Shown here: in pieces, positions 19,115 to 54,875 of the stretch | Layout of the letters: the number at the start of each line of letters is the position of its first letter | How positions within the stretch are numbered: the first letter of the stretch is position 1 | NCBI RefSeq assembly: GCF_041886205.1 | Contig: NZ_CP169029.1 | Strand: one strand, 5' to 3' | From: Escherichia coli | GTDB lineage: Bacteria > Pseudomonadota > Gammaproteobacteria > Enterobacterales > Enterobacteriaceae | Length of the DNA stretch: 64,000 nt | Translations under genes and position numbers: made by a program | Notes under the pieces: model-generated | What the model was told of the DNA's origin: nothing | Database searches by the model: none | The model's input: only the letters and a program-made list of their open reading frames with translations

Positions 19115-20167
19115 ATGAAAAAGACAGCTATCGCGATTGCAGTGGCACTGGCTGGTTTCGCTACCGTAGCGCAGGCCGCTCCGAAAGATAACACCTGGTA
19201 CACTGGTGCTAAACTGGGCTGGTCCCAGTACCATGACACTGGTTTTATTCCTAACAATGGTCCGACCCACGAAAACCAACTGGGTGCAGGTGCTTTTGGT
19301 GGTTACCAGGTTAACCCGTATGTTGGTTTTGAAATGGGTTACGACTGGTTAGGTCGTATGCCGTACAAAGGCGACAACATCAACGGTGCATACAAAGCTC
19401 AGGGCGTTCAACTGACCGCTAAACTGGGTTACCCAATCACTGACGATCTGGACGTATACACTCGTCTGGGTGGTATGGTATGGCGTGCAGACACCAAGGC
19501 TAACGTACCTGGTGGCGCATCCTTTAAAGACCACGACACTGGCGTTTCTCCGGTTTTCGCAGGTGGTGTTGAGTACGCGATCACTCCTGAAATCGCTACC
19601 CGTCTGGAATACCAGTGGACCAACAACATCGGTGACGCAAACACCATCGGTACTCGTCCGGACAACGGTCTGCTGAGCCTGGGTGTTTCCTACCGTTTCG
19701 GTCAGGGCGAAGCAGCTCCGGTAGTTGCTCCGGCTCCAGCTCCGGCACCGGAAGTACAGACCAAGCACTTCACTCTGAAGTCTGACGTTCTGTTCAACTT
19801 CAACAAAGCAACCCTGAAACCGGAAGGTCAGGCTGCTCTGGATCAGCTGTACAGCCAGCTGAGCAACCTGGATCCGAAAGACGGTTCCGTAGTTGTTCTG
19901 GGTTACACTGACCGCATCGGTTCTGACGCTTACAACCAGGGTCTGTCCGAGCGCCGTGCTCAGTCTGTTGTTGATTACCTGATCTCCAAAGGTATCCCGG
20001 CAGACAAGATCTCCGCACGTGGTATGGGCGAATCCAACCCGGTTACTGGCAACACCTGTGACAACGTGAAACAGCGTGCTGCACTGATAGACTGCCTGGC
20101 TCCGGATCGTCGCGTAGAGATCGAAGTTAAAGGCATCAAAGACGTTGTAACTCAGCCGCAGGCTTAA
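19115..20167 (+). CDS. ompA: Outer membrane protein A precursor (350 aa here; non-K-12 loop allele)
   Basis: Starts at [30 protein letters not shown]-terminal OmpA domain present. Loop segments read [10 protein letters not shown] and [15 protein letters not shown], unlike the K-12 form I recall. Confidence 0.95.
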
Positions 20168-33401: not shown

Positions 33402-34412
33402 TTAGATATGGGTAACGATTTCTTTAATCAGCGGCGGACCTTTAAAAATAAAACCAGAATAAATTTGCACCAGTGAGGCACCCGCAGCAATCTTTTCACG
33501 CGCAGCGATAACCGAGTCGATGCCGCCAACCCCGATGATCGGTAAGCGACCGTTTAATTCCAGTGACAAGCGGCGAATAATTTCGGTGCTTTTTAACTGA
33601 AGCGGACGACCACTTAAGCCACCGGTTTGATCGCAATTTTTCATTCCCTGAACCAGAGAACGATCGAGTGTGGTATTGGTTGCAATAACGCCATCAATAT
33701 TATGGCGAACTAAACTATCGGCAACCTGGATCAATTCGTCTTCAGAAAGATCCGGCGCGATCTTCACTGCGATCGGCACATATTTATGGTGCATCGCTTG
33801 CAAATCATTTTGCTTATTTTTAATCGCGGTTAAGAGATCATCCAGCGCTTCACCATATTGCAGCGTGCGTAATCCTGGGGTATTCGGCGATGAAATATTG
33901 ATGGCGATATATCCCGCATAGGCATAGATTTTTTCCATACAAATCAGATAGTCATCTTTTCCCTGCTCCACTGGCGTATCTTTATTTTTGCCGATATTAA
34001 TACCCAGGACGCCGTCATAATGGGCCTTTTTTACGTTCTCTACGAGGTTATCAACGCCAAGATTATTAAAGCCCATACGGTTGATCAAACCTTCGGCATC
34101 TACCAGACGAAAGAGACGCGGCTTGTCATTACCTGGCTGTGGACGTGGCGTGACGGTACCGATCTCGATCGATCCAAATCCCATCGCGCCTAACGCATCA
34201 ATGCACTCCCCGTCTTTATCAAGACCGGCTGCCAGACCAAGCGGATTTTTAAACGTCAGGCCCATGCAGTTAACAGGTTTCGCAGGCACTTTCTGCCGCA
34301 CCAGTGCTTCAAACGGCGTTCCAGTAATGCGGCGTAATTGCTGAAAAGTAAACTCATGAGCGCGCTCTGGATCGAGCTGGAAAAGGGCTTTACGAACGAA
34401 GGGGTAGTACAT
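33402..34412 (-). CDS. pyrD: Dihydroorotate dehydrogenase (quinone), PyrD (336 aa)
   Basis: Track ORF 33402..34439; the known product starts at [28 protein letters not shown] (ATG at 34412). Confidence 0.95.
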
Positions 34413-34498
34413 GAACTCTCCTGGATTCCCGGTGTGCAAACCGGGGGCGTATTATGTGCGAGTTCGGACCAAAAGGGAATTGACCTGCGGCAAAAAAA

Positions 34499-34514
34499 AC
34501 GCAAACGTTTTCCG
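34499..34514. promoter_or_regulatory. Putative PurR operator in the pyrD promoter (ACGCAAACGTTTTCCG)
   Basis: Matches the PurR box consensus ACGCAAACGTTTGCGT at 12-13 of 16 positions, about 90 nt upstream of the pyrD ATG; pyrD is a known PurR target. Confidence 0.7.
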
Positions 34515-34522
34515 AACCTGTT

Positions 34523-35232
34523 TCAGGGCAGATTTTGCTCCTTCTTTGCACTCAACCCGCCGTAATCATTTATCGCCCGCCAGGCGACATGACACGGTGC
34601 TATTGCCTGACACCAGCTTGTCTGACGCTGGCTTTTAGGTGGCACAACTCCCGCATTACTTAACGCTTTACCATTTACGCTCACCTGAATCAGATTAATG
34701 TAGTAAGGCGTTGGGTTAGTGAGTTGCACACCCTGCGAATTCCGTGTCCAGCGTAATTGTTGATAAGCTTCCAGCGGGTCACCCGGCAAACCTTCGGGTC
34801 GCCAGAACAGTTTAAATACCGAGCGCATCGCCACTTTTACGCTCTGATTTTCGACTTTGCCGGATGGCACGCTGGCAATGCTTAACTCAAATAGCGTTTC
34901 GCGATCCACAGGCAAGATGTTGCTTTCCGTTCTCAGTAAGCGCAACGTGCCTGTAGTACCGGGCTTCAGGAGAATAAGTGGCGGAGCGGCCAGTAATGGT
35001 GCTGGCACTGTCGACGCTTCCCCCCGGCCCAACGCGTTGGGCGATTGATTTTACTGTTAATAAGCCAGGATTCCTGACTGGTATTAGTCAGTAAAATAGA
35101 TATCGATTCGCTGTCTGCCGGAAAGATAAATCGCGTTCCGCCGACCACCACTCCTGCCTGCAATTCACCCGCCACCAGCAGCGATAAAACGGCAAAAATC
35201 AAGAGCGCCAATCTGTTCCACGTATTAGTCAT
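34523..35232 (-). pseudogene. ycbF: Fimbrial periplasmic chaperone YcbF, disrupted by a frameshift in a 6-nt homopolymer (C6 on + strand, 35020..35025)
   Basis: The N-terminal part (MTNTWNRLALLIFAVLSLLVAGELQA..., track ORF 34966..35259) and the C-terminal part (track ORF 34523..35032) are in different frames. Adding one G to the minus-strand G6 run gives a continuous 236-aa PapD-like chaperone. Confidence 0.7.
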
Positions 35233-35740
35233 AATGAAGTACAAATGTCGCGCTGGCATTCACTTTACCCGACTGCACATCGCTATTAACAGGTCGCAAT
35301 TGCGCATAAAAAGTTAATGGCACCTTACCGCTATGTAGGCTGTAGTCTTTACTCGCCTGGTTAAGCGGAATCAACATCTTCGCATCATCCAGAATCGCAA
35401 TTGCCAGCCCGCTGGCTGCATCCGTACCACTTTCAATGGACAGCATTTCGCTCTGCACTCCGTCGGGGGTTCCTGAAAAGGTGACGTCAACCGTGCTGAC
35501 ATCTGTTCCGCAATCCTGCAAATTAATGATGAAAGATTTCTCCGGGCCATAATTCCCATGAGAAAAACGTGTCAGCGAGACATCGCCTAACTGCACATTG
35601 ATTTGCGTGCTATCCTGTGCTAGCACGCATGTATTACGGCGAAACGATCCGCTAATGTTGACCGTACCATCATGGGCAAATAGCTCACAGCCCCCCGTTA
35701 ATCCCAGTAAGCACAGAATCCAGATTATCCTTTTCAACAT
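35225..35740 (-). CDS. ycbV: Fimbrial-like subunit YcbV (171 aa)
   Basis: Track ORF 35225..35788; start taken at MLKRIIWILCLLGLTGG (35740), 5 nt after the ycbU stop. Confidence 0.85.
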   Translation of the reverse strand: MLKRIIWILCLLGLTGGCELFAHDGTVNISGSFRRNTCVLAQDSTQINVQLGDVSLTRFSHGNYGPEKSFIINLQDCGTDVSTVDVTFSGTPDGVQSEMLSIESGTDAASGLAIAILDDAKMLIPLNQASKDYSLHSGKVPLTFYAQLRPVNSDVQSGKVNASATFVLHYD

Positions 35741-35747
35741 CACTCCT

Positions 35748-36290
35748 TCACTGGTAAACCAGATCAAAATAGAGAACCGCCGTCGCATTACCGCCCGTTG
35801 CTCCCGCCTTTGTGGACTTATAACGAAGTTGATATTTGAGTGTGTTATCCCCGGCTTTTAAGGGCGTAAGAGGCTGGACCTGATTGAGCGGGATTTCTTG
35901 CTGAGTTTGCGCATCAAGAATTTGTACGGCAATCCCCGTTGCCATACCACCGCTTCCGCCTGTGTCAGTTAGTTTGAGCAGTGTCGGCGCAAGGGTGTCA
36001 GCCTCGCCGCTAAAAAGGACGTCCGCGCCAGTAATACCAGCGGCACAACCGGTAATATCGATATTCAAATCAGCAGCAGTGCTTACGGTATTCGCGGCCT
36101 GAAAATCACTGATATTAAAATCACCAATATGAATATTTTGTAATGCACTTTTGGTGGCGACATCACAGCCCTGATCGACCACATTACCATAAATATGCAT
36201 ACTCACTTGTTCAGGCCCAGCCATCCCGATATGGATGTTAAGAAGGCTAAAGAACAAAATAACGCACTGATATATCATTTTTTTCTTCAT
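35748..36290 (-). CDS. ycbU: Fimbrial-like subunit YcbU (180 aa)
   Basis: Track ORF MKKKMIYQCVILFFSLLNIHIGMAGPEQV..., signal peptide plus pilin-like C-terminus. Confidence 0.88.
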   Translation of the reverse strand: MKKKMIYQCVILFFSLLNIHIGMAGPEQVSMHIYGNVVDQGCDVATKSALQNIHIGDFNISDFQAANTVSTAADLNIDITGCAAGITGADVLFSGEADTLAPTLLKLTDTGGSGGMATGIAVQILDAQTQQEIPLNQVQPLTPLKAGDNTLKYQLRYKSTKAGATGGNATAVLYFDLVYQ

Positions 36291-36301
36291 ACGTTCACGC
36301 G

Positions 36302-39963
<3,662 letters not shown>

Positions 39964-39987
39964 CTCGCTCTCTTAACTGAAGACGGC

Positions 39988-40689
39988 TTACGATTTACAG
40001 TTGAGTTGCGGCGTTTCCGCCCCGTAGTCATTGATGGTTCGGTACGTCAGGCTGCTGTTTTTGGCACCCTTTGGCAGAGAGAATTGGTATTTATCAAAAG
40101 GGGAAATCATTTGATTTTTAACTACTTTCCCACCAATTTTCAGACCTGTCAGGGTAATGAAATAAGGTGTTGGGTTACTGACCGAAACCATGTCAGCTGA
40201 CGAAGTGCAACGTAGTTTTTCCGGAGCTTCATCTGGAGAATACGGCAAACCTTTTGGTCGCCAGAAAAGTTTAATGACGCTTTGCGTAGCAATCTTCAGG
40301 GTATTGCCCTCTTCCCGCTTCGTTGTTGAAGGGACCGCCCGTACGCTGGTGAAGAAAAGGGTTTCCCTGTCTTTCGCCAACGGCGCGCCAATATACATAA
40401 TGCGTAACAGATTCTCATTTGCTGGATTCAGCACAAATAGCGGCGGTGTAATAATAAAGTCCGCTGACTTTTTATTATCTGGTGTCATCACCCATGACTG
40501 AATAAGATAAGGAACATCCGGACTGGTGTTACGCACACCCAGTGAAATTTGCTCTTCACCTTCCGAATAAACAAGGCGCGTTGCAGCAAGTCCAACCCCA
40601 CCGTTGCCTGCCGCCCATGCGGACGAACAGCTTAGCAATATTGCCGTTAAACTTACGGTCACAATTCCCTTTGTTATGCAAGTTCTCAT
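39988..40689 (-). CDS. elfD: Fimbrial periplasmic chaperone ElfD (YcbR), 233 aa
   Basis: Track ORF MRTCITKGIVTVSLTAILLSCSSAWAAGNGGVGLAATRLVYSEGEEQISLGVRN..., PapD-like chaperone. Confidence 0.9.
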   Translation of the reverse strand: MRTCITKGIVTVSLTAILLSCSSAWAAGNGGVGLAATRLVYSEGEEQISLGVRNTSPDVPYLIQSWVMTPDNKKSADFIITPPLFVLNPANENLLRIMYIGAPLAKDRETLFFTSVRAVPSTTKREEGNTLKIATQSVIKLFWRPKGLPYSPDEAPEKLRCTSSADMVSVSNPTPYFITLTGLKIGGKVVKNQMISPFDKYQFSLPKGAKNSSLTYRTINDYGAETPQLNCKS

Positions 40690-40772
40690 AAAAAATTACT
40701 CTTAGATAAATATAAACATCCCCTCTAATAAGTTTATTAAAGGGGGGATTAATGAATCGTTAAAAAATTTTA

Positions 40773-41315
40773 TCAATAATAGTTAATATGAAAATCTGTT
40801 ACTGCATTGACATTACCTGCTGTCGCTTTACCGGTAGCAATATAATCAACTTTAAAGGTCACTGTTTGCTCAGCAGAATCTGCTAACTGAATATTCGTGG
40901 TTTCAGTTCCAGGAGTCACCGTTGTTGACCCATCTGGCATATACAATTGTAGAGCAACATTCGTCGCTGCATCGGTGGAAGCTTGATTAGCAAATGCTGT
41001 AGGTTGCACACCATCAGCCGTACCACTGAAAGTAAAAGCAGCATTTTTAGTTACAGTAACATCACAATCTTCTAAAGCAATTGGTACATCAGTTTTAACG
41101 CCAGAGACTGCTCCATTACTTTGCAACTTCGTTGCACTGACATTTGGCAGTGTGACTACTGAATCTTTTGTCGCAGCAACTAACGTACAGGCTGGAGCAA
41201 TGACTTTACCATTAAACGTAACGGAGCCGTCCGTGATGGCATTATCATCGGCCGCCATAACGCTGGACGTTACACACACCACAGTGATAAAAGCCGTCAA
41301 TACACTTTTTTTCAT
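40773..41315 (-). CDS. elfA: Major fimbrial subunit ElfA (YcbQ), about 180 aa
   Basis: Track ORF 40773..41324; start taken at MKKSVLTAFITVVCVTSSVMAADD (41315). Confidence 0.88.
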   Translation of the reverse strand: MKKSVLTAFITVVCVTSSVMAADDNAITDGSVTFNGKVIAPACTLVAATKDSVVTLPNVSATKLQSNGAVSGVKTDVPIALEDCDVTVTKNAAFTFSGTADGVQPTAFANQASTDAATNVALQLYMPDGSTTVTPGTETTNIQLADSAEQTVTFKVDYIATGKATAGNVNAVTDFHINYY

Positions 41316-41670
41316 CGTTATCATCCTGATTTGTTCGTAAATATGATAATGTCTTCAAATGACATTGGACTTAATAATAGCAATAATTATCCGCCATTTA
41401 AATGAAGCATACGCAATCCAATAGGTTACAAATCTTTAAATTATTTATTTCATGAATATATATTTATTACCTGAACGAGTAATACATTGATTAAACATGA
41501 ATTGAACAGCAAATAAATAAATCCACGTGATATATATGTCTCAATCCTTAGTTCATTTTTAGAAAAAGATACACAAAATTTATATTTGGCATTTTCTTGT
41601 CTCTCCGACAGACTAACCGAATTGTTATCGATGTTAACAAAATAAGAACAATTGGTTATAAGGAGAGAAT

Positions 41671-42246
41671 ATGCGTGTCATCACCCTAGCGGGTAGTCCT
41701 CGCTTTCCTTCTCGCTCCAGCTCCTTGCTGGAATATGCGCGGGAAAAACTGAATGGCCTGGATGTAGAGGTTTATCACTGGAATCTGCAAAACTTTGCCC
41801 CGGAAGATCTGCTCTATGCCCGTTTCGATAGTCCGGCGCTAAAAACTTTCACCGAACAGCTGCAAGAGGCTGATGGACTGATAGTCGCTACGCCTGTGTA
41901 TAAAGCCGCCTATTCCGGGGCGCTTAAAACCCTGCTCGACCTGCTGCCGGAACGCGCTTTGCAAGGCAAAGTGGTGCTGCCGCTGGCGACGGGCGGCACG
42001 GTGGCTCATCTGCTGGCGGTTGATTACGCACTTAAACCGGTGTTAAGCGCCCTGAAAGCCCAGGAGATCCTGCACGGCGTATTTGCCGATAACTCACAAG
42101 TCATTGATTACCATCACAGACCCCAGTTCACGCCAAATCTGCAAACCCGTCTTGATGCTGCGCTCGACACCTTCTGGCAAGCGCTGCACCGCCGTGATGT
42201 TCAGGTTCCTGACCTTTTTTCTCTGCGAGGTAATGTCCATGCGTAA
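41671..42246 (+). CDS. ssuE: NADPH-dependent FMN reductase SsuE (191 aa)
   Basis: Track ORF MRVITLAGSPRFPSRSSSLLEYAREKLNGL...; AAGGAGAG Shine-Dalgarno 4 nt upstream. Confidence 0.93.
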   Translation: MRVITLAGSPRFPSRSSSLLEYAREKLNGLDVEVYHWNLQNFAPEDLLYARFDSPALKTFTEQLQEADGLIVATPVYKAAYSGALKTLLDLLPERALQGKVVLPLATGGTVAHLLAVDYALKPVLSALKAQEILHGVFADNSQVIDYHHRPQFTPNLQTRLDAALDTFWQALHRRDVQVPDLFSLRGNVHA

Positions 42247-43198
42247 CATCATTAAACTGGCGCTGGCGGGATTACTTAGCGTCTCTACACTCGCGGTTGC
42301 CGCAGAGTCTTCGCCAGAGGCGTTAAGGATTGGCTATCAGAAAAGCAACATCAGTTCAGTACTGGCGAAAAATTACCAAATGCTGGAAAAACGTTATCCG
42401 CAAACAAAAATCTCCTGGGTGGAGTTTCCCGCTGGCCCGCAGATGCTGGAGGCGTTAAACGTTGGCAGTATTGATCTCGGCAGTACCGGGGATATTCCGC
42501 CAATCTTTGCCCAGGCTGCCGGGGCTGATTTGGTATACGTGGGCGTCGAGCCGCCGAAGCCAAAAGCCGAAGTGATTCTGGTAGCAGAAAACAGCCCGAT
42601 CAAAACCGTAGCCGATCTTAAAGGCCACAAAGTTGCCTTTCAGAAAGGTTCCAGTTCACACAACCTTTTACTGCGTGCACTGCGTCAGGCCGGACTTAAG
42701 TTTACCGATATACAACCCACTTACCTGACACCCGCTGATGCCCGCGCCGCGTTCCAGCAAGGTAACGTTGACGCCTGGGCTATCTGGGATCCCTACTACT
42801 CCGCTGCATTATTACAGGGCGGCGTGCGGGTGTTGAAAGACGGCACCGATCTCAATCAAACCGGATCGTTTTATCTGGCAACTCGCCCCTATGCAGAAAA
42901 AAACGGCGCTTTTATTCAGGGCGTACTGGCAACCTTTAGTGAGGCCGATGCGTTAACCCGCAGCCAGCGCGAGCAAAGCATCGCTTTACTGGCAAAAACG
43001 ATGGGCTTACCGGCACCGGTGATTGCCTCTTACTTAGATCATCGCCCTCCTACCACCATCAAACCGGTTAACGCCGAGGTTGCCGCCTTACAGCAGCAAA
43101 CGGCAGATCTGTTTTATGAAAACCGACTGGTGCCGAAAAAAGTCGATATCCGCCAGCGCATCTGGCAGCCCACTCAACTGGAAGGAAAACAATCATGA
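42239..43198 (+). CDS. ssuA: Aliphatic sulfonate periplasmic binding protein SsuA (319 aa)
   Basis: Track ORF 42083..43198; the known product starts at [25 protein letters not shown] (ATG at 42239), overlapping the ssuE stop by 8 nt. Confidence 0.92.
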
Positions 43199-44340
43199 GT
43201 CTGAATATGTTCTGGTTTTTACCGACCCACGGTGACGGACATTATCTGGGAACGGAAGAAGGTTCACGCCCGGTTGATCACGGTTATCTGCAACAAATTG
43301 CGCAAGCGGCGGATCGTCTGGGCTATACCGGTGTGCTGATCCCAACGGGGCGATCGTGTGAAGATGCGTGGTTGGTTGCCGCATCGATGATCCCGGTGAC
43401 GCAGCGGCTGAAGTTTCTTGTCGCCCTGCGCCCCAGCGTAACCTCACCTACCGTTGCCGCTCGCCAGGCCGCCACGCTTGACCGTCTCTCGAATGGTCGT
43501 GCGTTGTTTAATCTGGTCACAGGCAGCGATCCACAAGAGCTGGCAGGCGACGGCGTATTCCTTGATCATAGCGAGCGCTACGAAGCCTCGGCGGAATTTA
43601 CCCAGGTCTGGCGACGTTTATTGCAGGGAGAAACCGTCGATTTCAACGGTAAACATATTCATGTGCGCGGAGCAAAACTGCTCTTCCCGGCGATTCAACA
43701 GCCGTATCCGCCACTTTACTTTGGCGGATCGTCAGATGTCGCCCAGGAGTTGGCGGCAGAACAGGTTGATCTCTACCTCACCTGGGGCGAACCTCCGGAA
43801 CTGGTTAAAGAGAAAATCGAACAAGTGCGGGCAAAAGCTGCCGCGCATGGACGCAAAATTCGTTTCGGTATTCGTCTGCATGTGATTGTTCGTGAAACTA
43901 ACGACGAAGCGTGGCTGGCCGCCGAGCGGTTAATCTCGCATCTTGATGATGAAACTATCGCCAAAGCACAGGCCGCATTCGCCCGGACGGATTCCGTAGG
44001 ACAACAGCGGATGGCGGCGTTACATAACGGCAAGCGCGACAATCTGGAGATCAGCCCCAATTTATGGGCGGGCGTTGGCTTAGTGCGCGGCGGTGCCGGG
44101 ACGGCGCTGGTGGGCGATGGTCCTACGATCGCCTCGCGAATCAACGAATACGCTGCACTTGGCATCGACAGTTTTGTGCTTTCGGGCTATCCGCATCTGG
44201 AAGAAGCGTATCGGGTCGGCGAGTTGCTGTTCCCACATCTGGATGTCGCCATTCCGGAAATTCCCCAGCCGCAGCCGCTGAATCCGCAAGGCGAAGCGGT
44301 GGCGAATGATTTTATCCCCCGTAAAGTCGCGCAAAGCTAA
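43195..44340 (+). CDS. ssuD: FMNH2-dependent alkanesulfonate monooxygenase SsuD (381 aa)
   Basis: Track [47 protein letters not shown]... matches SsuD. Confidence 0.95.
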
Positions 44341-44348
44341 GGAACACG

Positions 44349-45143
44349 ATGATGCCAACGCCAGTGAAGAAGTGGTTATTGCGCGTTGCCCCCTGGTTTT
44401 TACCGGTGAGCATCGTAGTGGTGTGGCAACTGGCCTCCTCGGTTGGCTGGCTGTCGACGCGTATTTTGCCTTCACCGGAAGGAGTGGTGACGGCGTTCTG
44501 GACGCTCTCCGCCAGCGGTGAACTGTGGCAGCATCTGGCGATCAGTTCCTGGCGGGCGCTGATTGGCTTTTCAATTGGCGGATCGCTGGGCTTGATTCTG
44601 GGACTGATTAGCGGGCTGTCACGCTGGGGAGAACGGCTGCTGGATACCTCAATTCAGATGTTGCGCAACGTACCGCATCTGGCGCTGATCCCGCTGGTGA
44701 TTTTGTGGTTTGGCATTGATGAATCCGCAAAAATCTTTCTGGTGGCGCTCGGCACGCTATTCCCCATTTATATCAACACCTGGCATGGCATCCGTAATAT
44801 CGATCGCGGGCTGGTGGAGATGGCGCGTAGCTATGGGTTATCCGGCATACCGCTGTTTATCCATGTGATCCTGCCTGGTGCCCTGCCCTCAATTATGGTC
44901 GGCGTGCGTTTTGCGTTGGGCCTGATGTGGCTGACGCTGATTGTTGCCGAAACCATTTCTGCCAATTCAGGCATTGGTTATCTGGCGATGAATGCGCGGG
45001 AGTTTTTGCAAACGGACGTGGTGGTGGTCGCCATTATTCTTTACGCCCTGCTCGGCAAACTTGCTGACGTCAGCGCGCAGCTGTTAGAGCGCCTCTGGTT
45101 GCGCTGGAACCCGGCTTATCATTTGAAGGAGGCCACGGTATGA
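44349..45143 (+). CDS. ssuC: Aliphatic sulfonate ABC transporter permease SsuC (about 263 aa)
   Basis: Track [30 protein letters not shown]...; AAGGAA Shine-Dalgarno 5 nt upstream. Confidence 0.92.
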
Positions 45144-45907
45144 ATACTGCTCGTCTGAACCAGGGCACACCATTGTTGCTCAATGCAGTAAGCAAACATT
45201 ACGCGGAAAATATCGTCCTGAACCAACTGGATTTACATATTCCGGCAGGTCAGTTTGTGGCGGTGGTGGGCCGCAGCGGTGGTGGCAAAAGTACCCTGCT
45301 GCGCCTGCTGGCAGGTCTGGAAACGCCAACCGCAGGCGATGTGTTAGCGGGCACCACACCGCTGGCTGAAATTCAGGAAGACACGCGAATGATGTTTCAG
45401 GATGCGCGTCTGCTACCGTGGAAATCGGTGATTGATAACGTTGGGTTAGGCCTTAAAGGCCAGTGGCGCGATGCAGCGCGTCGGGCGTTGGCTGCGGTAG
45501 GACTGGAGAATCGCGCAGGGGAATGGCCTGCCGCACTTTCAGGCGGGCAGAAACAGCGTGTGGCGCTGGCAAGAGCGTTGATTCATCGACCGGGTTTATT
45601 GTTGCTTGATGAACCGCTCGGGGCACTGGACGCCTTAACGCGACTCGAGATGCAGGATTTGATTGTGTCACTTTGGCAGGAGCACGGCTTTACCGTACTG
45701 TTGGTGACGCATGATGTGAGCGAAGCGGTAGCAATGGCTGACCGGGTGTTGTTAATTGAAGAGGGAAAAATTGGTCTGGATTTGACGGTGGATATCCCCC
45801 GTCCGCGCCGGTTAGGGTCGGTGCGATTAGCGGAGCTGGAAGCGGAAGTGTTGCAACGGGTGATGCAGCGTGGGCACTCTGAACAACCGATTCGGCGTCA
45901 TGGTTAA
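45140..45907 (+). CDS. ssuB: Aliphatic sulfonate ABC transporter ATPase SsuB (255 aa)
   Basis: Track [32 protein letters not shown]... with Walker [10 protein letters not shown] and ABC signature LSGGQKQR. Confidence 0.95.
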
Positions 45908-45909
45908 TA

Positions 45910-46100
45910 TGCCGGATGTGCCGCACAAAACCAGCAGTTTCAACGGATTGTAGGCCTGATAAGACGCGTCAAGCGTCGCATCAGGCATTTGGGCACGGCT
46001 GCCGGATGCGGCGTGAACGCCTTATCCAGCCTACAAAACCAGCATTTTCAACGGACTTGTAGGCCTGATAAGACGCGTCAAGCGTCGCATCCGGCATTTT
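45910..46100. repeat. REP/BIME cluster: two ~66-nt direct repeats (45927..45992 and 46035..46100) with an inverted REP-like copy between them
   Basis: Repeated motif TGTAGGCCTGATAAGACGCGTCAAGCGTCGCATC(A/C)GGCA and inverted GCCGGATGCGGCGTGAACGCCTTATCCAGCCTACA, the canonical E. coli REP palindrome family, between convergent ssuB and pepN. Confidence 0.9.
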
Positions 46101-46112
46101 GGCTCAAAAGTA

Positions 46113-48725
46113 TCAAGCCAGTGCTTTAGTTATCTTCTCGTACAGATCGCCAGAGAGATTTTCCAGCCCTTTCAACTGCTCCAGCGCCGCGCGCATTTTC
46201 TCCTGACGTTTGGCATCGTAACGTTTCAGGCGAATCAGCGGTTCAATCAGACGTGAAGCCACCTGCGGGTTACGGCTGTTGAGGTCGGTAAGCATTTCCA
46301 CCAGGAACTGGTAACCACTGCCATCGTCGGCATGGAACGCTGCCGGGTTGCTGCCCGCAAACGCGCCAATCAACGAACGAATACGGTTCGGGTTGCTCAT
46401 GGTAAATGAGCGATGCTGCAACAGACCACGTACCGTCTCCAGCACATTCGCCGCCGGGCTGGTGGCTTGCAGGATAAACCATTTATCCATCACCAGACCA
46501 TCCTGATGCCACTTGTCGTCGTACTCCTGCATCAGCGCGTCACGGCATGGCAGCTGTGCGGCAACCGCCGCAGAAAGCGCCGCCAGCGCATCGGTCATAT
46601 TGTTCGCTTCATGGAACTGCTTGCTCACCAGCACATCAGCCAGATGCGTTTCACCAAAAGCAAGGAAGCGCAGACAGGCATTACGCAGAGTGCGTTTTGC
46701 AATATCTTCATGCTCAACGCGGTACTCGCTCTGGTAATTCGCGTTGTAAATAGCCAGCAGCTCATCCGCCAGTTCAGTCGCCAGAGTACGAGTGAGTGCT
46801 TCGCGTACTTCGGCAATAGCAATCGGGTCGATGATATCGAACAGTTCAGCCATTTCATTGACGGATGGCAGAGTCAGAATTTCTGCCGCCAGTGCCGGGT
46901 CAATCTTCTCATCGAGCAGCACCGCGCGGAAGGCGTCGGCCACATGCACCGGCAGAGACAGCGGCTGCCCTTGCTGATGACGGGCGACGTTCAGCTTGAT
47001 GTAGGTTGCCAGCAAACTTTGCGCCGCATCCCAACGGGAGAAATCATTACGCGCATGACGCATCAGGAAGGTCAGTTGCTGATCGCTCCACTTATATTCC
47101 AGTTTCACTGGCGCAGAGAATTCGCACAGCAGCGCAGGCACCGGCTGGAAGTAGACATTATCAAAGACAAAGGTCTGTTCCGCCTGAGTGACGTTCAGCA
47201 CGGAATTCACCGGATGACCGCCTTTCTGCAACGGGATCACTTTGCCTTCGTTATCATACAGTTCGATGGCAAACGGAATATGCAGCGGCTGTTTTTCTGC
47301 CTGATCCGGCGTGGCTGGCGTGCGCTGGCTGATGGTCAGGGTGTACTGCTCGGTTTCCGGATTGTAGTCGTCTTTGACGGTCACAATCGGTGTACCGGAC
47401 TGGCTGTACCAACGGCGGAAATGGGAGAGATCGACATTCGACGCATCTTCCATCGCCTGCACAAAGTCGTCACAGGTCGCTGCACTACCATCATGACGCT
47501 CGAAATAAAGCTGCATCCCTTTCTGGAAGTTTTCTTCGCCCAATAGGGTATGGATCATGCGAATCACTTCCGCGCCCTTCTCGTAAACGGTCAGGGTGTA
47601 GAAGTTGTTCATCTCAATGACCATATCCGGGCGGATCGGGTGCGCCATCGGGCTGGCGTCTTCTGCAAACTGCAATCCGCGCATGGTGCGCACATTATTG
47701 ATGCGGTTAACTGCGCGGGAACCAAGGTCAGAGCTGAACTCCTGATCGCGGAAGACGGTTAAACCTTCTTTCAGGCTGAGCTGGAACCAGTCGCGGCAGG
47801 TCACTCGGTTACCGGTCCAGTTATGGAAATATTCATGGCCGATAACGCGTTCAATATCGAGGTAATCTTTATCGGTGGCGGTGTCGGTGCGGGCCAGCAC
47901 ATATTTGGAGTTAAAGATATTCAGACCTTTATTCTCCATTGCGCCCATATTAAAGAAGTCCACCGCGACGATCATATAGATGTCGAGGTCATACTCCAGG
48001 CCGAAGCGTTCTTCATCCCATTTCATGGAGTTTTTCAGCGAGGTCATCGCCCACGGCGCGCGGTCGAGGTTGCCGCGATCGACGTACAACTCCAGCGCCA
48101 CTTCGCGACCAGAACGCGTGGTGAAGGTGTCGCGCAGCACGTCGAAGTCGCCTGCAACCAGCGCAAACAGGTAGCACGGTTTAGGGAACGGATCCTGCCA
48201 CTGTACCCAATGGCGTCCGTTTTCCAGTTCGCCTTGCGCAACGCGGTTACCGTTGGAAAGCAGGAAGGGATATTTGGTTTTATCGGCTATAATTTTGGTG
48301 GTAAAACGCGCCAGCACGTCCGGGCGGTCGAGATAATACGTAATGTGGCGGAAACCTTCGGCTTCACACTGGGTGCAAAGCGCATCGCCTGACTGATAAA
48401 GCCCTTCCAGCGCAGTATTCGCCGCCGGGCTAATTTCATTAACGATCTTAAGCGTAAAACGCTCCGGCAAATTACTGATGACCAGTGCGCCCTCTTCTTC
48501 TTTCCAGGCGGTCCACGGCTCATCATTAATATGAACAGAAACCAGTTTAAGATCTTCGCCATCAAGACGAAGCGGAGTATCTGATGCACCATGACGGGCA
48601 GCCTGGCTGACCGCGGTAACGACCGTCTTTTGCGCGTCCAGGTCAAAGGTCAAGTCAATATCAGTAATCTGGTAATCCGGCGCACGATAATCGTGACGGT
48701 ATTTGGCTTGTGGCTGTTGAGTCAT
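46113..48725 (-). CDS. pepN: Aminopeptidase N (870 aa)
   Basis: Track ORF MTQQPQAKYRHDYRAPDYQITDIDLTFDLDAQKT... with the HEYFHNWTGNRVT zinc-binding motif. Confidence 0.96.
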   Translation of the reverse strand: MTQQPQAKYRHDYRAPDYQITDIDLTFDLDAQKTVVTAVSQAARHGASDTPLRLDGEDLKLVSVHINDEPWTAWKEEEGALVISNLPERFTLKIVNEISPAANTALEGLYQSGDALCTQCEAEGFRHITYYLDRPDVLARFTTKIIADKTKYPFLLSNGNRVAQGELENGRHWVQWQDPFPKPCYLFALVAGDFDVLRDTFTTRSGREVALELYVDRGNLDRAPWAMTSLKNSMKWDEERFGLEYDLDIYMIVAVDFFNMGAMENKGLNIFNSKYVLARTDTATDKDYLDIERVIGHEYFHNWTGNRVTCRDWFQLSLKEGLTVFRDQEFSSDLGSRAVNRINNVRTMRGLQFAEDASPMAHPIRPDMVIEMNNFYTLTVYEKGAEVIRMIHTLLGEENFQKGMQLYFERHDGSAATCDDFVQAMEDASNVDLSHFRRWYSQSGTPIVTVKDDYNPETEQYTLTISQRTPATPDQAEKQPLHIPFAIELYDNEGKVIPLQKGGHPVNSVLNVTQAEQTFVFDNVYFQPVPALLCEFSAPVKLEYKWSDQQLTFLMRHARNDFSRWDAAQSLLATYIKLNVARHQQGQPLSLPVHVADAFRAVLLDEKIDPALAAEILTLPSVNEMAELFDIIDPIAIAEVREALTRTLATELADELLAIYNANYQSEYRVEHEDIAKRTLRNACLRFLAFGETHLADVLVSKQFHEANNMTDALAALSAAVAAQLPCRDALMQEYDDKWHQDGLVMDKWFILQATSPAANVLETVRGLLQHRSFTMSNPNRIRSLIGAFAGSNPAAFHADDGSGYQFLVEMLTDLNSRNPQVASRLIEPLIRLKRYDAKRQEKMRAALEQLKGLENLSGDLYEKITKALA

Positions 48726-48943
48726 AAATAACCTTTAGCATCTTTTATAGAGTCTGGTGTTCAGTCTATTCCTGTTGCGTAAATCGCGCTATGCAGAATC
48801 TTCATCTTTTCAGGTACAAACGCCCTTATTGCTACATTTTTATAACATACACCGCGTAGTGCCATCGACCAGAAAGGTGGCATATGGTGTGATCGGGGTT
48901 CAATAAATTGCGAAACAAGGTATACTCCAGCAGTTCCTGAAGA

Positions 48944-48960
48944 TGTTTATTGTACTAAAC
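48944..48960. promoter_or_regulatory. Putative NadR operator upstream of pncB (TGTTTA-N6-TAAAC)
   Basis: Inverted half-sites TGTTTA and TAAAC separated by 6 nt, about 30-45 nt upstream of the pncB ATG; pncB is NadR-regulated in enterobacteria. Confidence 0.5.
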
Positions 48961-48990
48961 GCTCCTGTACGAGGACGCTACTGCGCACCT

Positions 48991-50193
48991 ATGACACAAT
49001 TCGCTTCTCCTGTTCTGCACTCGTTGCTGGATACAGATGCTTATAAGTTGCATATGCAGCAAGCCGTGTTTCATCACTATTACGATGTGCATGTCGCGGC
49101 GGAGTTTCGTTGCCGAGGTGACGATCTGCTGGGTATTTATGCCGATGCTATTCGTGAACAGGTTCAGGCGATGCAGCACCTGCGCCTGCAGGATGATGAA
49201 TATCAATGGCTCTCAGCCCTGCCTTTCTTTAAGGCCGACTATCTTAACTGGTTACGCGAGTTCCGCTTTAACCCGGAACAAGTCACCGTATCCAACGATA
49301 ATGGCAAGCTGGATATTCGTTTAAGCGGCCCGTGGCGTGAAGTCATCCTCTGGGAAGTTCCTTTGCTGGCGGTTATCAGTGAAATGGTACATCGCTATCG
49401 CTCACCGCAGGCCGACGTTGCGCAAGCCCTCGACACGCTGGAAAGCAAATTAGTCGACTTCTCGGCATTAACCGCCGGTCTTGATATGTCGCGCTTCCAT
49501 CTGATGGATTTTGGCACCCGCCGCCGTTTTTCTCGCGAAGTACAAGAAACCATCGTTAAGCGTCTGCAACAGGAATCCTGGTTCGTGGGCACCAGCAACT
49601 ATGATCTGGCGCGCCGGCTTTCCCTCACGCCGATGGGAACACAGGCACACGAATGGTTCCAGGCGCATCAGCAAATCAGCCCGGATCTAGCCAACAGCCA
49701 GCGAGCTGCACTTGCTGCCTGGCTGGAAGAGTATCCCGACCAACTTGGCATTGCATTAACCGACTGCATCACTATGGATGCTTTCCTGCGTGATTTCGGT
49801 GTCGAGTTCGCTAGTCGGTATCAGGGCCTGCGTCATGACTCTGGCGACCCGGTTGAATGGGGTGAAAAAGCCATTGCACATTATGAAAAGCTGGGAATTG
49901 ATCCACAGAGTAAAACGCTGGTTTTCTCTGACAATCTGGATTTACGCAAAGCGGTTGAGCTATACCGCCACTTCTCTTCCCGCGTGCAATTAAGTTTTGG
50001 TATTGGGACTCGCCTGACCTGCGATATCCCCCAGGTAAAACCCCTGAATATTGTGATTAAGTTGGTAGAGTGTAACGGTAAACCGGTGGCGAAACTTTCT
50101 GACAGCCCTGGCAAAACTATCTGCCACGATAAAGCGTTTGTTCGGGCGCTGCGCAAAGCGTTCGACCTTCCGCATATTAAAAAAGCCAGTTAA
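48991..50193 (+). CDS. pncB: Nicotinate phosphoribosyltransferase PncB (400 aa)
   Basis: Track ORF 48943..50193; the known product starts at [30 protein letters not shown] (ATG at 48991). Confidence 0.93.
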
Positions 50194-50201
50194 TATCATC
50201 A

Positions 50202-50227
50202 GGGAGCTAATCGGCTCCCTTTTTTTA
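50202..50227 (+). terminator. Intrinsic terminator after pncB
   Basis: Stem GGGAGC-TAATCG-GCTCCC followed by T8. Confidence 0.75.
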
Positions 50228-50361
50228 CCTTTAATTCCGAAATCTTTCGCTGCATTTGCGAATTCTGCTTGTCTGATTGCAGATGCCAGGTAACATAGGT
50301 ATCCCCCCATTTACGGGTGGACAAGTGTTTATTTTTTCCGACTATTAACAGAGAGAATATT

Positions 50362-51762
50362 ATGAGCGTTGTGCCTGTAGCCGACGTACTCCAGGGCCGT
50401 GTAGCCGTTGACAGCGAAGTCACCGTGCGCGGATGGGTACGTACCCGCCGAGATTCAAAAGCTGGCATCTCCTTCCTCGCCGTTTATGACGGTTCCTGCT
50501 TTGATCCTGTACAGGCTGTCATCAATAATTCTCTGCCCAATTACAATGAAGACGTCCTGCGTCTGACCACCGGCTGCTCGGTCATTGTGACGGGTAAAGT
50601 CGTGGCGTCGCCGGGCCAGGGGCAACAATTTGAAATTCAGGCCAGCAAGGTTGAAGTTGCTGGTTGGGTTGAAGATCCAGACACTTACCCGATGGCGGCA
50701 AAACGCCACAGCATTGAGTATCTGCGTGAAGTCGCTCACCTGCGTCCGCGCACAAACCTGATTGGTGCCGTCGCGCGCGTTCGCCATACGCTGGCGCAGG
50801 CGCTGCATCGCTTCTTTAACGAGCAGGGATTCTTCTGGGTTTCAACGCCACTGATTACTGCGTCTGATACCGAAGGGGCTGGCGAAATGTTCCGCGTTTC
50901 TACGCTGGATCTGGAAAATCTGCCGCGTAACGATCAGGGCAAAGTGGATTTCGACAAAGACTTCTTTGGTAAAGAGTCTTTCCTGACCGTATCTGGCCAG
51001 TTGAACGGCGAAACCTACGCTTGCGCATTATCCAAAATTTATACCTTCGGCCCGACTTTCCGTGCTGAAAACTCCAACACCAGCCGTCACCTGGCGGAGT
51101 TCTGGATGCTGGAGCCGGAAGTGGCGTTTGCTAACCTGAACGATATCGCGGGTCTGGCTGAAGCCATGCTGAAATATGTCTTCAAAGCGGTTCTCGAAGA
51201 ACGCGCAGACGACATGAAATTCTTCGCTGAACGCGTAGATAAAGATGCCGTTTCACGTCTGGAACGCTTCATTGAGGCCGATTTCGCGCAGGTGGATTAC
51301 ACCGACGCAGTGACCATTCTCGAAAACTGCGGCAGGAAGTTTGAAAACCCGGTTTACTGGGGCGTCGATCTCTCTTCTGAGCATGAGCGTTATCTGGCGG
51401 AAGAACACTTTAAAGCACCGGTAGTGGTTAAAAACTATCCGAAAGATATTAAAGCGTTCTATATGCGCCTCAACGAAGACGGTAAAACCGTTGCGGCTAT
51501 GGACGTTCTGGCTCCGGGCATCGGTGAGATCATTGGTGGCTCCCAGCGTGAAGAACGTCTGGACGTTCTGGACGAGCGTATGCTGGAAATGGGCCTGAAT
51601 AAAGAAGATTACTGGTGGTATCGCGATCTGCGTCGCTACGGTACTGTTCCGCATTCAGGTTTCGGTCTTGGTTTTGAACGCCTGATTGCTTACGTAACTG
51701 GCGTGCAAAACGTGCGTGATGTGATTCCGTTCCCACGTACTCCGCGCAACGCCAGCTTCTGA
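50362..51762 (+). CDS. asnS: Asparaginyl-tRNA synthetase AsnS (466 aa)
   Basis: Track ORF 50317..51762; the known product starts at [30 protein letters not shown] (ATG at 50362). Confidence 0.95.
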
Positions 51763-51773
51763 TTTTCTTCCTC

Positions 51774-51804
51774 AAAGAGCCAGCGCCTGCTGGCTCTTTT
51801 TTAT
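51774..51804 (+). terminator. Intrinsic terminator after asnS
   Basis: Stem AGAGCCAGC-GCCT-GCTGGCTCT followed by TTTTTT. Confidence 0.85.
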
Positions 51805-52153
51805 CCTTTCTGTCAAGTTATCTGTTTGTTAAGTCAAGCAATCTATTTGCAACCCCGCCATAACGATCATCCTGTTACGGAATATTACATTGCAACATTT
51901 ACGCACAAAAAATAACCTGGATTCTTATTGCGGATTAGTTTTTTCTTAGCTGATAGCACAATTTTCATACTATTTTTTGGCATTCTGGATGTCTGAACGA
52001 GGATTTAGTGCCAGGTCGATAAAGTTTCCATCAGAAACAAAATTTCCGTTTAGTTAATTTAAATATAAGGAAATCATATAAATAGATAAAAATTGCTGTA
52101 AATATCATCACGCTTCTATGGAAATATGACGGTGTTCACAAAGTTCCTTAAAT

Positions 52154-52218
52154 TTTACTTTTGGTTACATATTTTTTCTTTTTGAAACCAAATCTTTATC
52201 TTTGTAGCACTTTCACGG
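52154..52218 (+). promoter_or_regulatory. ompF promoter-proximal OmpR binding sites F1-F2-F3
   Basis: Sequence TTTACTTTTGGTTACATATTTTTTCTTTTTGAAACCAAATCTTTATCTTTGTAGCACTTTCACGG matches the classical ompF OmpR-box region as I recall it, about 150-210 nt upstream of the ATG. Confidence 0.8.
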
Positions 52219-52363
52219 TAGCGAAACGTTAGTTTGAATGGAAAGATGCCTGCAGACACATAAAGACACCAAACTCTCATCAATAGTTCCGTAAATTTTT
52301 ATTGACAGAACTTATTGACGGCAGTGGCAGGTGTCATAAAAAAAACCATGAGGGTAATAAATA

Positions 52364-53452
52364 ATGATGAAGCGCAATATTCTGGCAGTGATCGTCCCTG
52401 CTCTGTTAGTAGCAGGTACTGCAAACGCTGCAGAAATCTATAACAAAGATGGCAACAAAGTAGATCTGTACGGTAAAGCTGTCGGTCTGCATTATTTTTC
52501 TAAAGACAATGGTGTAAACAGTTACGGCGGAAACGGCGACAAAACTTATGCCCGTCTTGGTTTTAAAGGGGAAACACAAATCAATTCCGATCTGACCGGT
52601 TATGGTCAGTGGGAATATAACTTCCAGGGTAACAACTCTGAAGGCGCTGACGCTCAAACTGGTAACAAAACGCGTCTGGCATTCGCGGGTCTTAAATACG
52701 CTGACATTGGTTCTTTCGATTACGGCCGTAACTACGGTGTGGTTTATGATGCACTGGGTTACACCGATATGCTGCCAGAATTTGGTGGTGATACTGCATA
52801 CAGCGATGACTTCTTCGTTGGTCGTGTTGGCGGCGTTGCTACCTATCGTAACTCCAACTTCTTTGGTCTGGTTGATGGCCTGAACTTCGCTGTTCAGTAC
52901 CTGGGTAAAAACGAGCGTGACACTGCACGCCGCTCTAACGGCGACGGTGTTGGCGGTTCTATCAGCTACGAATACGAAGGCTTTGGTATCGTTGGTGCTT
53001 ATGGTGCAGCTGACCGTACCAACCTGCAAGAAGCTCAACCTCTTGGCAACGGTAAAAAAGCTGAACAGTGGGCTACTGGTCTGAAGTACGACGCGAACAA
53101 CATCTACCTGGCAGCGAACTACGGTGAAACCCGTAACGCTACGCCGATCACTAATAAATTTACAAACACCAGCGGCTTCGCCAACAAAACGCAAGACGTT
53201 CTGTTAGTTGCGCAATACCAGTTCGATTTCGGTCTGCGTCCGTCCATCGCTTACACCAAATCTAAAGCGAAAGACGTAGAAGGTATCGGTGATGTTGATC
53301 TGGTGAACTACTTTGAAGTGGGCGCAACCTACTACTTCAACAAAAACATGTCCACCTATGTTGACTACATCATCAACCAGATCGATTCTGACAACAAACT
53401 GGGCGTAGGTTCAGACGACACCGTTGCTGTGGGTATCGTTTACCAGTTCTAA
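52364..53452 (+). CDS. ompF: Outer membrane porin OmpF precursor (362 aa)
   Basis: Track [48 protein letters not shown]... ending in the C-terminal Phe; a few substitutions relative to the K-12 sequence I recall. Confidence 0.95.
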
Positions 53453-53477
53453 TAGCACACCTCTTTGTTAAATGCCG

Positions 53478-53508
53478 AAAAAACAGGACTTTGGTCCTGT
53501 TTTTTTTA
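53478..53508 (+). terminator. Intrinsic terminator after ompF
   Basis: Stem CAGGAC-TTTG-GTCCTG followed by T9. Confidence 0.85.
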
Positions 53509-53636
53509 TACCTTCCAGAGCAATCTCACGTCTTGCAAAAACAGCCTGCGTTTTCATCAGTAATAGTTGGAATTTTGTAAATCTCCCGTTACCCTGATAG
53601 CGGACTTCCCTTCTGTAACCATAATGGAACCTCGTC

Positions 53637-54827
53637 ATGTTTGAGAACATTACCGCCGCTCCTGCCGACCCGATTCTGGGCCTGGCCGATCTGTTTCGTG
53701 CCGATGAACGTCCCGGCAAAATTAACCTCGGGATTGGTGTCTATAAAGATGAGACGGGCAAAACCCCGGTACTGACCAGCGTGAAAAAGGCTGAACAGTA
53801 TCTGCTCGAAAATGAAACCACCAAAAATTACCTCGGCATTGACGGCATCCCTGAATTTGGTCGCTGCACTCAGGAACTGCTGTTTGGTAAAGGTAGCGCC
53901 CTGATCAATGACAAACGTGCTCGCACGGCACAGACTCCGGGGGGCACTGGCGCACTACGCGTGGCTGCCGATTTCCTGGCAAAAAATACCAGCGTTAAGC
54001 GTGTGTGGGTGAGCAACCCAAGCTGGCCGAACCATAAGAGCGTCTTTAACTCTGCAGGTCTGGAAGTTCGTGAATACGCTTATTATGATGCGGAAAATCA
54101 CACTCTTGACTTCGATGCACTGATTAACAGCCTGAATGAAGCTCAGGCTGGCGACGTAGTGCTGTTCCATGGCTGCTGCCATAACCCAACCGGTATCGAC
54201 CCTACGCTGGAACAATGGCAGACACTGGCACAACTCTCCGTTGAGAAAGGCTGGTTACCGCTGTTTGACTTCGCTTACCAGGGTTTTGCCCGTGGTCTGG
54301 AAGAAGATGCTGAAGGACTGCGCGCTTTCGCGGCTATGCATAAAGAGCTGATTGTTGCCAGTTCCTACTCTAAAAACTTTGGCCTGTACAACGAGCGTGT
54401 TGGCGCTTGTACTCTGGTTGCTGCCGACAGTGAAACCGTTGATCGCGCATTCAGCCAAATGAAAGCGGCGATTCGCGCTAACTACTCTAACCCACCAGCA
54501 CACGGCGCTTCTGTTGTTGCCACCATCCTGAGCAACGATGCGTTACGTGCGATTTGGGAACAAGAGCTGACTGATATGCGCCAGCGTATTCAGCGTATGC
54601 GTCAGTTGTTCGTCAATACGCTGCAGGAAAAAGGCGCAAACCGCGACTTCAGCTTTATCATCAAACAGAACGGCATGTTCTCCTTCAGTGGCCTGACAAA
54701 AGAACAAGTGCTGCGTCTGCGCGAAGAGTTTGGCGTATATGCGGTTGCTTCTGGTCGCGTAAATGTGGCCGGGATGACACCAGATAACATGGCTCCGCTG
54801 TGCGAAGCGATTGTGGCAGTGCTGTAA
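53637..54827 (+). CDS. aspC: Aspartate aminotransferase AspC (396 aa)
   Basis: Track [49 protein letters not shown]... matches AspC. Confidence 0.96.
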
Positions 54828-54837
54828 GCGTTAAAAA

Positions 54838-54869
54838 CAATGAAGCCCGCTGAAAAGCGGGCTTTTTTA
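54838..54869. terminator. Bidirectional intrinsic terminator between convergent aspC and gloC
   Basis: Stem GCCCGC-TGAAAA-GCGGGC flanked by an A-tract and T6. Confidence 0.85.
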
Positions 54870-54875
54870 TGCGAC

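Follow-up and report, generated by a model that had tools for sequence, protein, structure and literature searches.

Does the porin gene at positions 52364–53452 of this Escherichia coli chromosome carry a few substitutions relative to the OmpF of strain K-12, or does part of the gene have a history of its own? The gene lies on the + strand, as do the parts of the ompF locus placed below, within the window, the 64,000-nucleotide stretch of DNA that was analysed (contig NZ_CP169029.1). It comprises 362 codons from an ATG start to a TAA stop and is 99% identical to K-12 b0929. The NCBIfam equivalog model NF007446 ‘porin OmpF’ scores the encoded protein at 790.7 bits (cutoff 583), and the PhoE and OmpC models, at 481 and 465, stay below their own cutoffs; the Pfam family PF00267 (Porin_1) spans residues 28–362. 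OmpF is a trimeric, 16-stranded general diffusion porin whose weakly cation-selective pores have an exclusion limit of approximately 600 Da. The gene order asnS (ending at 51762)–ompF–aspC (53637–54827) is that of K-12, with the three genes lying on the opposite strand in MG1655 and their order kept, and it recurs at three related loci (L084, L085 and L088). We regard 52364–53452 as the normal chromosomal ompF of a non-K-12 E. coli.

The core ompF promoter and 5′ untranslated region (UTR), at 52115–52363, are identical to those of K-12 and hold the proximal OmpR box F1, which we take to be the sequence TTTACTTTTGGTTACATAT, matched exactly at 52154–52172. Between 52115 and 52482 there are zero differences between K-12 and the window. 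The signal peptide of 22 residues (52364–52429) is likewise K-12-identical, mature chains in the PDB beginning at residue 23 (AEIYNK), and the C-terminal aromatic residue (..VYQF) is present. The residues of the constriction zone (K16, R42, R82, R132, D113 and E117 in mature numbering, partly from the established structural literature) and loops L2–L8 are all as in K-12. Since the constriction zone, signal peptide, promoter and 5′ UTR are unchanged, the product should be a working and normally regulated OmpF. Downstream of the gene, a probable intrinsic terminator was read from the sequence at 53478–53508, consisting of AAAAAACAGGAC-TTTG-GTCCTGTTTTTT followed by a run of T residues; this hairpin is absent from the output of a consensus terminator scan.

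Two clusters of differences from K-12 lie further upstream. At 51905–51920, 5 differences occur within 16 nt (51905, 51912, 51916, 51918 and 51920), just 3′ of GTTACGGAATATTACATTGCAACATTTAC and approximately 350–380 nt upstream of the inferred ompF start site; this is presumably the neighbourhood of the distal OmpR site F4, and K-12 and the divergent E. coli locus L088, described below, agree with each other at three of the five positions. The other, at 51761–51806, is a substitution cluster with two single-base indels around the asnS stop codon and terminator hairpin (51774–51799). At most of its sites the window is the odd one out, and K-12 and L088 are the same there.

Comparison with the translation of K-12 b0929 (NC_000913.3) gave exactly four amino acid differences, leaving 358 of 362 residues identical. 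Three of them, G48D (mature G26D, GGT>GAC), E51V (mature E29V, GAA>GTA) and M60K (mature M38K, ATG>AAA), fall in a divergent cassette encoding loop L1, and the fourth, V115I (mature V93I, GTT>ATT), lies outside it. The K-12 residues are present in every OmpF chain of the PDB and the window residues in none. A preliminary description of this DNA had reported substitutions in the N-terminal region, quoting peptides from the window beside K-12 peptides, and had taken the rest of the protein to be identical. The quoted window peptides are indeed present, the quoted K-12 peptides (…KYADVGSFDY… among them) agree with both the b0929 translation and the PDB chains, and the pairwise comparison with b0929 bore out the identity of the remainder. 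That the differences are an artefact of sequencing or assembly is vanishingly improbable, given that at least 40 independent complete genomes carry a 100% identical gene and that the exact protein (UniProt W8TQJ0, W8TQJ0_ECOLX) is found on at least 1,000 public contigs.

The nucleotide differences are unevenly distributed along the gene. Thirteen of the 16 fall within 76 nt (52501–52576, codons 46–71), a segment that encodes loop L1 and the beginning of strand β2, and 8 of these 13 are at synonymous positions. When 16 differences were placed at random 200,000 times, no placement put 13 of them in any 76-nt span, the maximum being 9. Nei–Gojobori estimates for the patch are a dS of approximately 1.0 and a dN of 0.06, compared with 0.009 and 0.001 for the remaining 336 codons; the resulting dN/dS of 0.06 in the patch carries no direct signature of positive selection in this pairwise comparison. 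No difference from K-12 occurs in the 1.3 kb that follow 52933, in a window that as a whole is approximately 1–2.6% diverged. Synonymous divergence thus rises about a hundred-fold within a run of 26 codons, which is the mark of an exchanged segment and not of local adaptive mutation.

An origin of the four changes by recent point mutation in situ, with a K-12-like ompF acquiring them under antibiotic or phage selection, is very improbable for the same reason, as it would have to account for 8 synonymous changes beside 3 replacements in 76 nt. It would fit with the report of a clinical β-lactam-resistant isolate in which G48D, E51V and M60K are listed among ‘missense mutations’ (PMC8136739), and with the location of three of the four residues in an exposed loop or the pore lining. 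The identical patch nevertheless occurs in a second class of ompF alleles.

This second class was found by protein search. Its representative, P0123 (357 residues), has the same L1 as the window protein and different loops L2, L4, L5 and L6, and its DNA is the locus L088 (2501–3574) of E. coli GCA_038019395.1. The window gene is 100% identical to L088 over nt 1–216 and 99.5–100% identical to K-12 over nt 217–1089, and over aligned nt 216–900 L088 is 6–25% diverged from both the window and K-12. In a three-way alignment, the window agrees with L088 wherever it differs from K-12 between 51998 and 52576. Across 52600–53942, it agrees with K-12 at approximately 100 sites at which L088 differs, the only exceptions being 52706 and 52933. 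This pattern of sites places the breakpoint between an L088-like 5′ part and a K-12-like 3′ part in the interval 52577–52599. A possible 5′ extension of the exchanged tract covers 51998–52114, where six sites (51998, 52001, 52007, 52088, 52113 and 52114) match L088 and not K-12; the segment 52115–52482, being invariant in all three sequences, does not fix the 5′ edge of the tract.

With L088 matched on the 5′ side and K-12 on the 3′ side, the window ompF is a clean chimera with a crossover at 52576–52600, best explained by homologous recombination and not by local mutation. We give this overall explanation a probability of about 0.9. At least nt 1–213 of the gene, and probably a tract starting approximately 370 nt upstream, would derive from the divergent L088/P0123 allele class, with the rest of ompF being K-12-like and the crossover located between 52576 and 52600. 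The exchanged piece would thereby bring in an alternative 15-residue L1 cassette that is far more diverged than its flanks. The two exceptional sites in the 3′ part are changes private to the window in the comparison with K-12 and L088: a G>A change at 52706, where both K-12 and L088 have G, which results in V115I, and a synonymous change at 52933 (R190, CGT>CGC). V115I looks like a private point change that would be later than the exchange. The earlier wording of ‘substitutions’ is therefore correct in that the differences are real and incomplete in that three of the four belong to one recombined L1 cassette, only V115I being point-like.

The distribution of the cassette was assessed by comparing a 131-nt query (52463–52593) with 5,445 E. 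coli records. The L1 region proved to be nearly dimorphic: 763 records carry the window type (at least 99% identity), 4,675 the K-12 type (80–90%) and 7 are intermediate. In terms of the three replaced residues, the K-12 ‘GEM’ form of L1 is found in approximately 86% of records and the window ‘DVK’ form in approximately 14%. Both the number of window-type records, the commensal strain HS among them, and the rarity of intermediates weigh further against point mutation in situ. In whole-gene searches at an identity of at least 99%, the window allele recovered 283 records and the L088 allele 485; as these together account for the 763, the DVK cassette resides on essentially two gene backbones. 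The complete window ompF is 100% identical in HS (NC_009800.1), ATCC 8739 (NC_010468.1), PCN061 and numerous isolates from livestock, humans and the environment, and the allele is already known, common and catalogued. In a collection of adherent-invasive E. coli (AIEC), higher adhesion was correlated with E51 and M60, and outer membrane protein variants tracked phylogroup (PMC6691688); the association of E51V and M60K with adhesion is correlative. Separately, one E. coli OmpF (P0121, 385 residues) contains a 23-residue in-frame tandem duplication that covers L6 and runs into the beginning of the following strand; with a single member, it could reflect either a rare variant or an error of assembly.

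Gene conversion from a paralogue (ompC, phoE, ompN or nmpC), or acquisition from a porin gene carried by a phage or plasmid, would also deliver a divergent patch in one step. Each E. coli genome has a median of two places similar to the 131-nt query, and porin genes, lc and nmpC among them, are present in lambdoid phages. Phage matches, however, reach only query nt 82–122, the conserved β2 strand, at 90% identity, and matches in the plasmid collection are either short and partial or K-type ompF on records of chromosome size. The sole partial non-ompF match among the E. coli genomes listed (H70) is of the same kind, and L1 of the paralogues is shorter, for example FSDNKDVDGDQTY. Such a source is likewise very improbable. 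Paralogous, phage-borne and plasmid-borne porins were thus each considered as donors and set aside, the conserved β2 segment being all that matches.

The chimera accounts for how the cassette reached this gene; where the cassette itself came from is a separate matter. E. albertii (L004) and a divergent Escherichia (L057) have the K-12-type L1 in both protein and DNA, their patches being 97–99% identical to K-12 and 82–86% identical to the window, which indicates that the K-12 type is old in the genus. In the patch only, sequences from outside Escherichia are nearer to the window than those of Escherichia. Among the matches listed, patch identity to the window is 91% for Citrobacter sp. R56, 89.5% for a metagenomic enterobacterium (L084), 87–88% for Cedecea and 83% for K-12. 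Of the 14 sites that distinguish the window from K-12 in nt 1–276, 10 have the window base in Citrobacter sp. R56 as well, an agreement that again argues against independent point mutations. A form of L1 ending in [KQ]TY is usual in the OmpF of Citrobacter, Kosakonia, Superficieibacter, Dryocola and Buttiauxella, and an Enterobacter-like genome has D, V and K at all three L1 positions. Among the matches listed, no donor of the cassette was found above 91% identity. Metagenomic OmpF relatives with a DVK-like L1 (P0172, P0175 and P0177) were rejected as donors, their best identity in the patch being 89.5%, and a protein search for L1 donors with a 103-residue N-terminal fragment yielded truncated proteins only, none longer than 181 residues.

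The most likely source from which the cassette came into Escherichia is the ompF of another enterobacterium, Citrobacter-like genes being the closest among the sequences sampled. Import from an unsampled enterobacterial lineage is, on balance, the more likely origin. A smaller, still appreciable likelihood attaches to a different history, in which both L1 types belong to an ancient, balanced polymorphism within Escherichia, maintained for example by frequency-dependent selection from phages or colicins, and no import took place. The two discrete haplotypes with almost no intermediates would fit such a polymorphism, as would a closest donor of only 91% among the matches listed. Phages and the immune system are known to target porin loops (PMC5056734), and L1 is a demonstrated phage contact. 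Against an ancient polymorphism, both of the sampled outgroups, E. albertii and L057, have the K-12 type only, the synonymous states of the patch are common to Citrobacter, Cedecea and the metagenomic enterobacterium and not to any Escherichia sequence, and the window type occurs on just two allele classes. Under import, selection directed at the cell surface would presumably have maintained the cassette. A fuller proposal, in which the two-state L1 cassette was imported from another species, has stayed at intermediate frequency under balancing selection by OmpF-binding phages or colicins, and might measurably shift pore electrostatics and the passage of fluoroquinolones or β-lactams, is speculative and rather doubtful as a whole.

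For the positions of the replaced residues in the protein we relied on the literature, an AlphaFold2 model built on a 10-sequence alignment having a pLDDT of 26.7 and being unusable. Residues 51 and 60 of the precursor are extracellular according to the AIEC porin study (PMC6691688), and D26 and V29 are located in loop L1. E29 and M38 are among the inner-layer, pore-lining residues of a channel model (PMC8281304), and M38 forms part of an external enrofloxacin site together with Y32, R82, F118 and R132 (PMC3382719). In phage-21 coevolution, S53R was described as an ‘entry-level’ resistance mutation against OmpF-using phage (bioRxiv 10.1101/2023.04.13.536812); as this resistance arises two residues from E51, L1 is a genuine phage contact. 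The combination of E29V and M38K would add a charge of +2 facing the lumen, making the vestibule more basic, and would remove a hydrophobic contact, and G26D and E29V would alter the surface of L1. I93, placed by the known alternation of loops and turns, would lie in the periplasmic turn after strand β4, where it represents a conservative change. Given the pore-lining position of E29 and M38 and the contact of L1 with phage, altered behaviour towards phages, colicins or antibiotics, as the preliminary description suggested, is plausible; it would take the form of a modest shift in ion selectivity, in drug binding above the constriction or in recognition by phages or colicins. A literature search for functional experiments on the window allele found none, and returned correlative mentions only.

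The genomic surroundings agree with the preliminary description in its further proposal that, together with the ompA allele, the ompF differences indicate a non-K-12 background. The window is colinear with MG1655 at only 97.4–99.0% identity, and its ompA (19115–20167) is a different allele with 95.0% nucleotide identity, loop substitutions and a four-residue insertion: N46P, S87D/V88N/E89I, I114V, S129A, Y132P followed by the insertion GASF, N135D, H172N and M182L. The 20 kb at 34000–54000 is matched at 99% or more by 17 of 5,467 E. coli records, the best matches, each at 100.0%, being wlxctx60, from an Asian black bear, and 6EVA, of human origin. Despite having the same ompF allele, HS and ATCC 8739 have a different flanking haplotype.

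Other segments of the window also depart from K-12. The region of the elf (ycb) fimbrial operon, at 36000–43000, contains 58–136 differences per kb relative to K-12, against a window background of approximately 10–15 per kb, which makes it a further locus for surface structures whose alleles are deeply diverged. In the ssuB–pepN spacer, approximately 230 nt of repeats resembling repetitive extragenic palindromes (REP; 45883–46111) are found where K-12 has an unrelated 64 nt. Conversely, the aspC–gloC spacer of the window (54828–54875) is without approximately 170 nt of REP-like sequence present in K-12.

Both recombination and variation of the loops are textbook phenomena in enterobacterial porins, and as the allele is common and catalogued and the process ordinary, the finding matters little in itself. 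It does call for caution in the reading of clinical ‘porin mutations’ that are tied to resistance or adhesion: G48D, E51V and M60K are a natural, lineage-associated cassette and not acquired mutations. If allele swaps gave a phenotype, the L1 dimorphism would serve as one more predictor of phage and colicin host range. A true phenotype would also mean a small correction to models of permeability, all of which are based on K-12 structures.

Set beside OmpF of K-12 MG1655 (b0929, NP_415449.1; PDB 2OMF and 3HW9), the window protein has the same length, locus, synteny, promoter core and 5′ UTR, and is distinguished by G48D, E51V and M60K in L1, by V115I and by the 16 nucleotide differences in its gene. 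The ompF of HS, ATCC 8739 and PCN061 is the same gene, although the flanking 20 kb of the window is nearer to other strains. The L088/P0123 class shares nt 1–216 with the window, including the whole L1 cassette, and is unlike it in L2, L4 (AGIPE versus DTARR) and L5, and in a six-residue deletion in L6. A short L6 is common to the L088 class, E. albertii and L057; given its presence in the latter two, the longer L6 of K-12 (TNKFTNTS) may itself be a derived state.

Comparable variation has been described in related porins. Loop variants of E. coli OmpC occur in many combinations (Beck et al. 2016, PMC5056734), recombination has been reported in Yersinia ompF (PMC3105102), and the variation of porin loops has been put down to pressure from phages, the immune system and contact-dependent inhibition (CDI) (PMC5056734, PMC3105102). 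The window ompF resembles OmpC and Yersinia ompF in that its variation is concentrated in the extracellular loops. In contrast to OmpC, its variable unit, as known here from sequence, is the single loop L1, which occurs as two main haplotypes and not as dozens.
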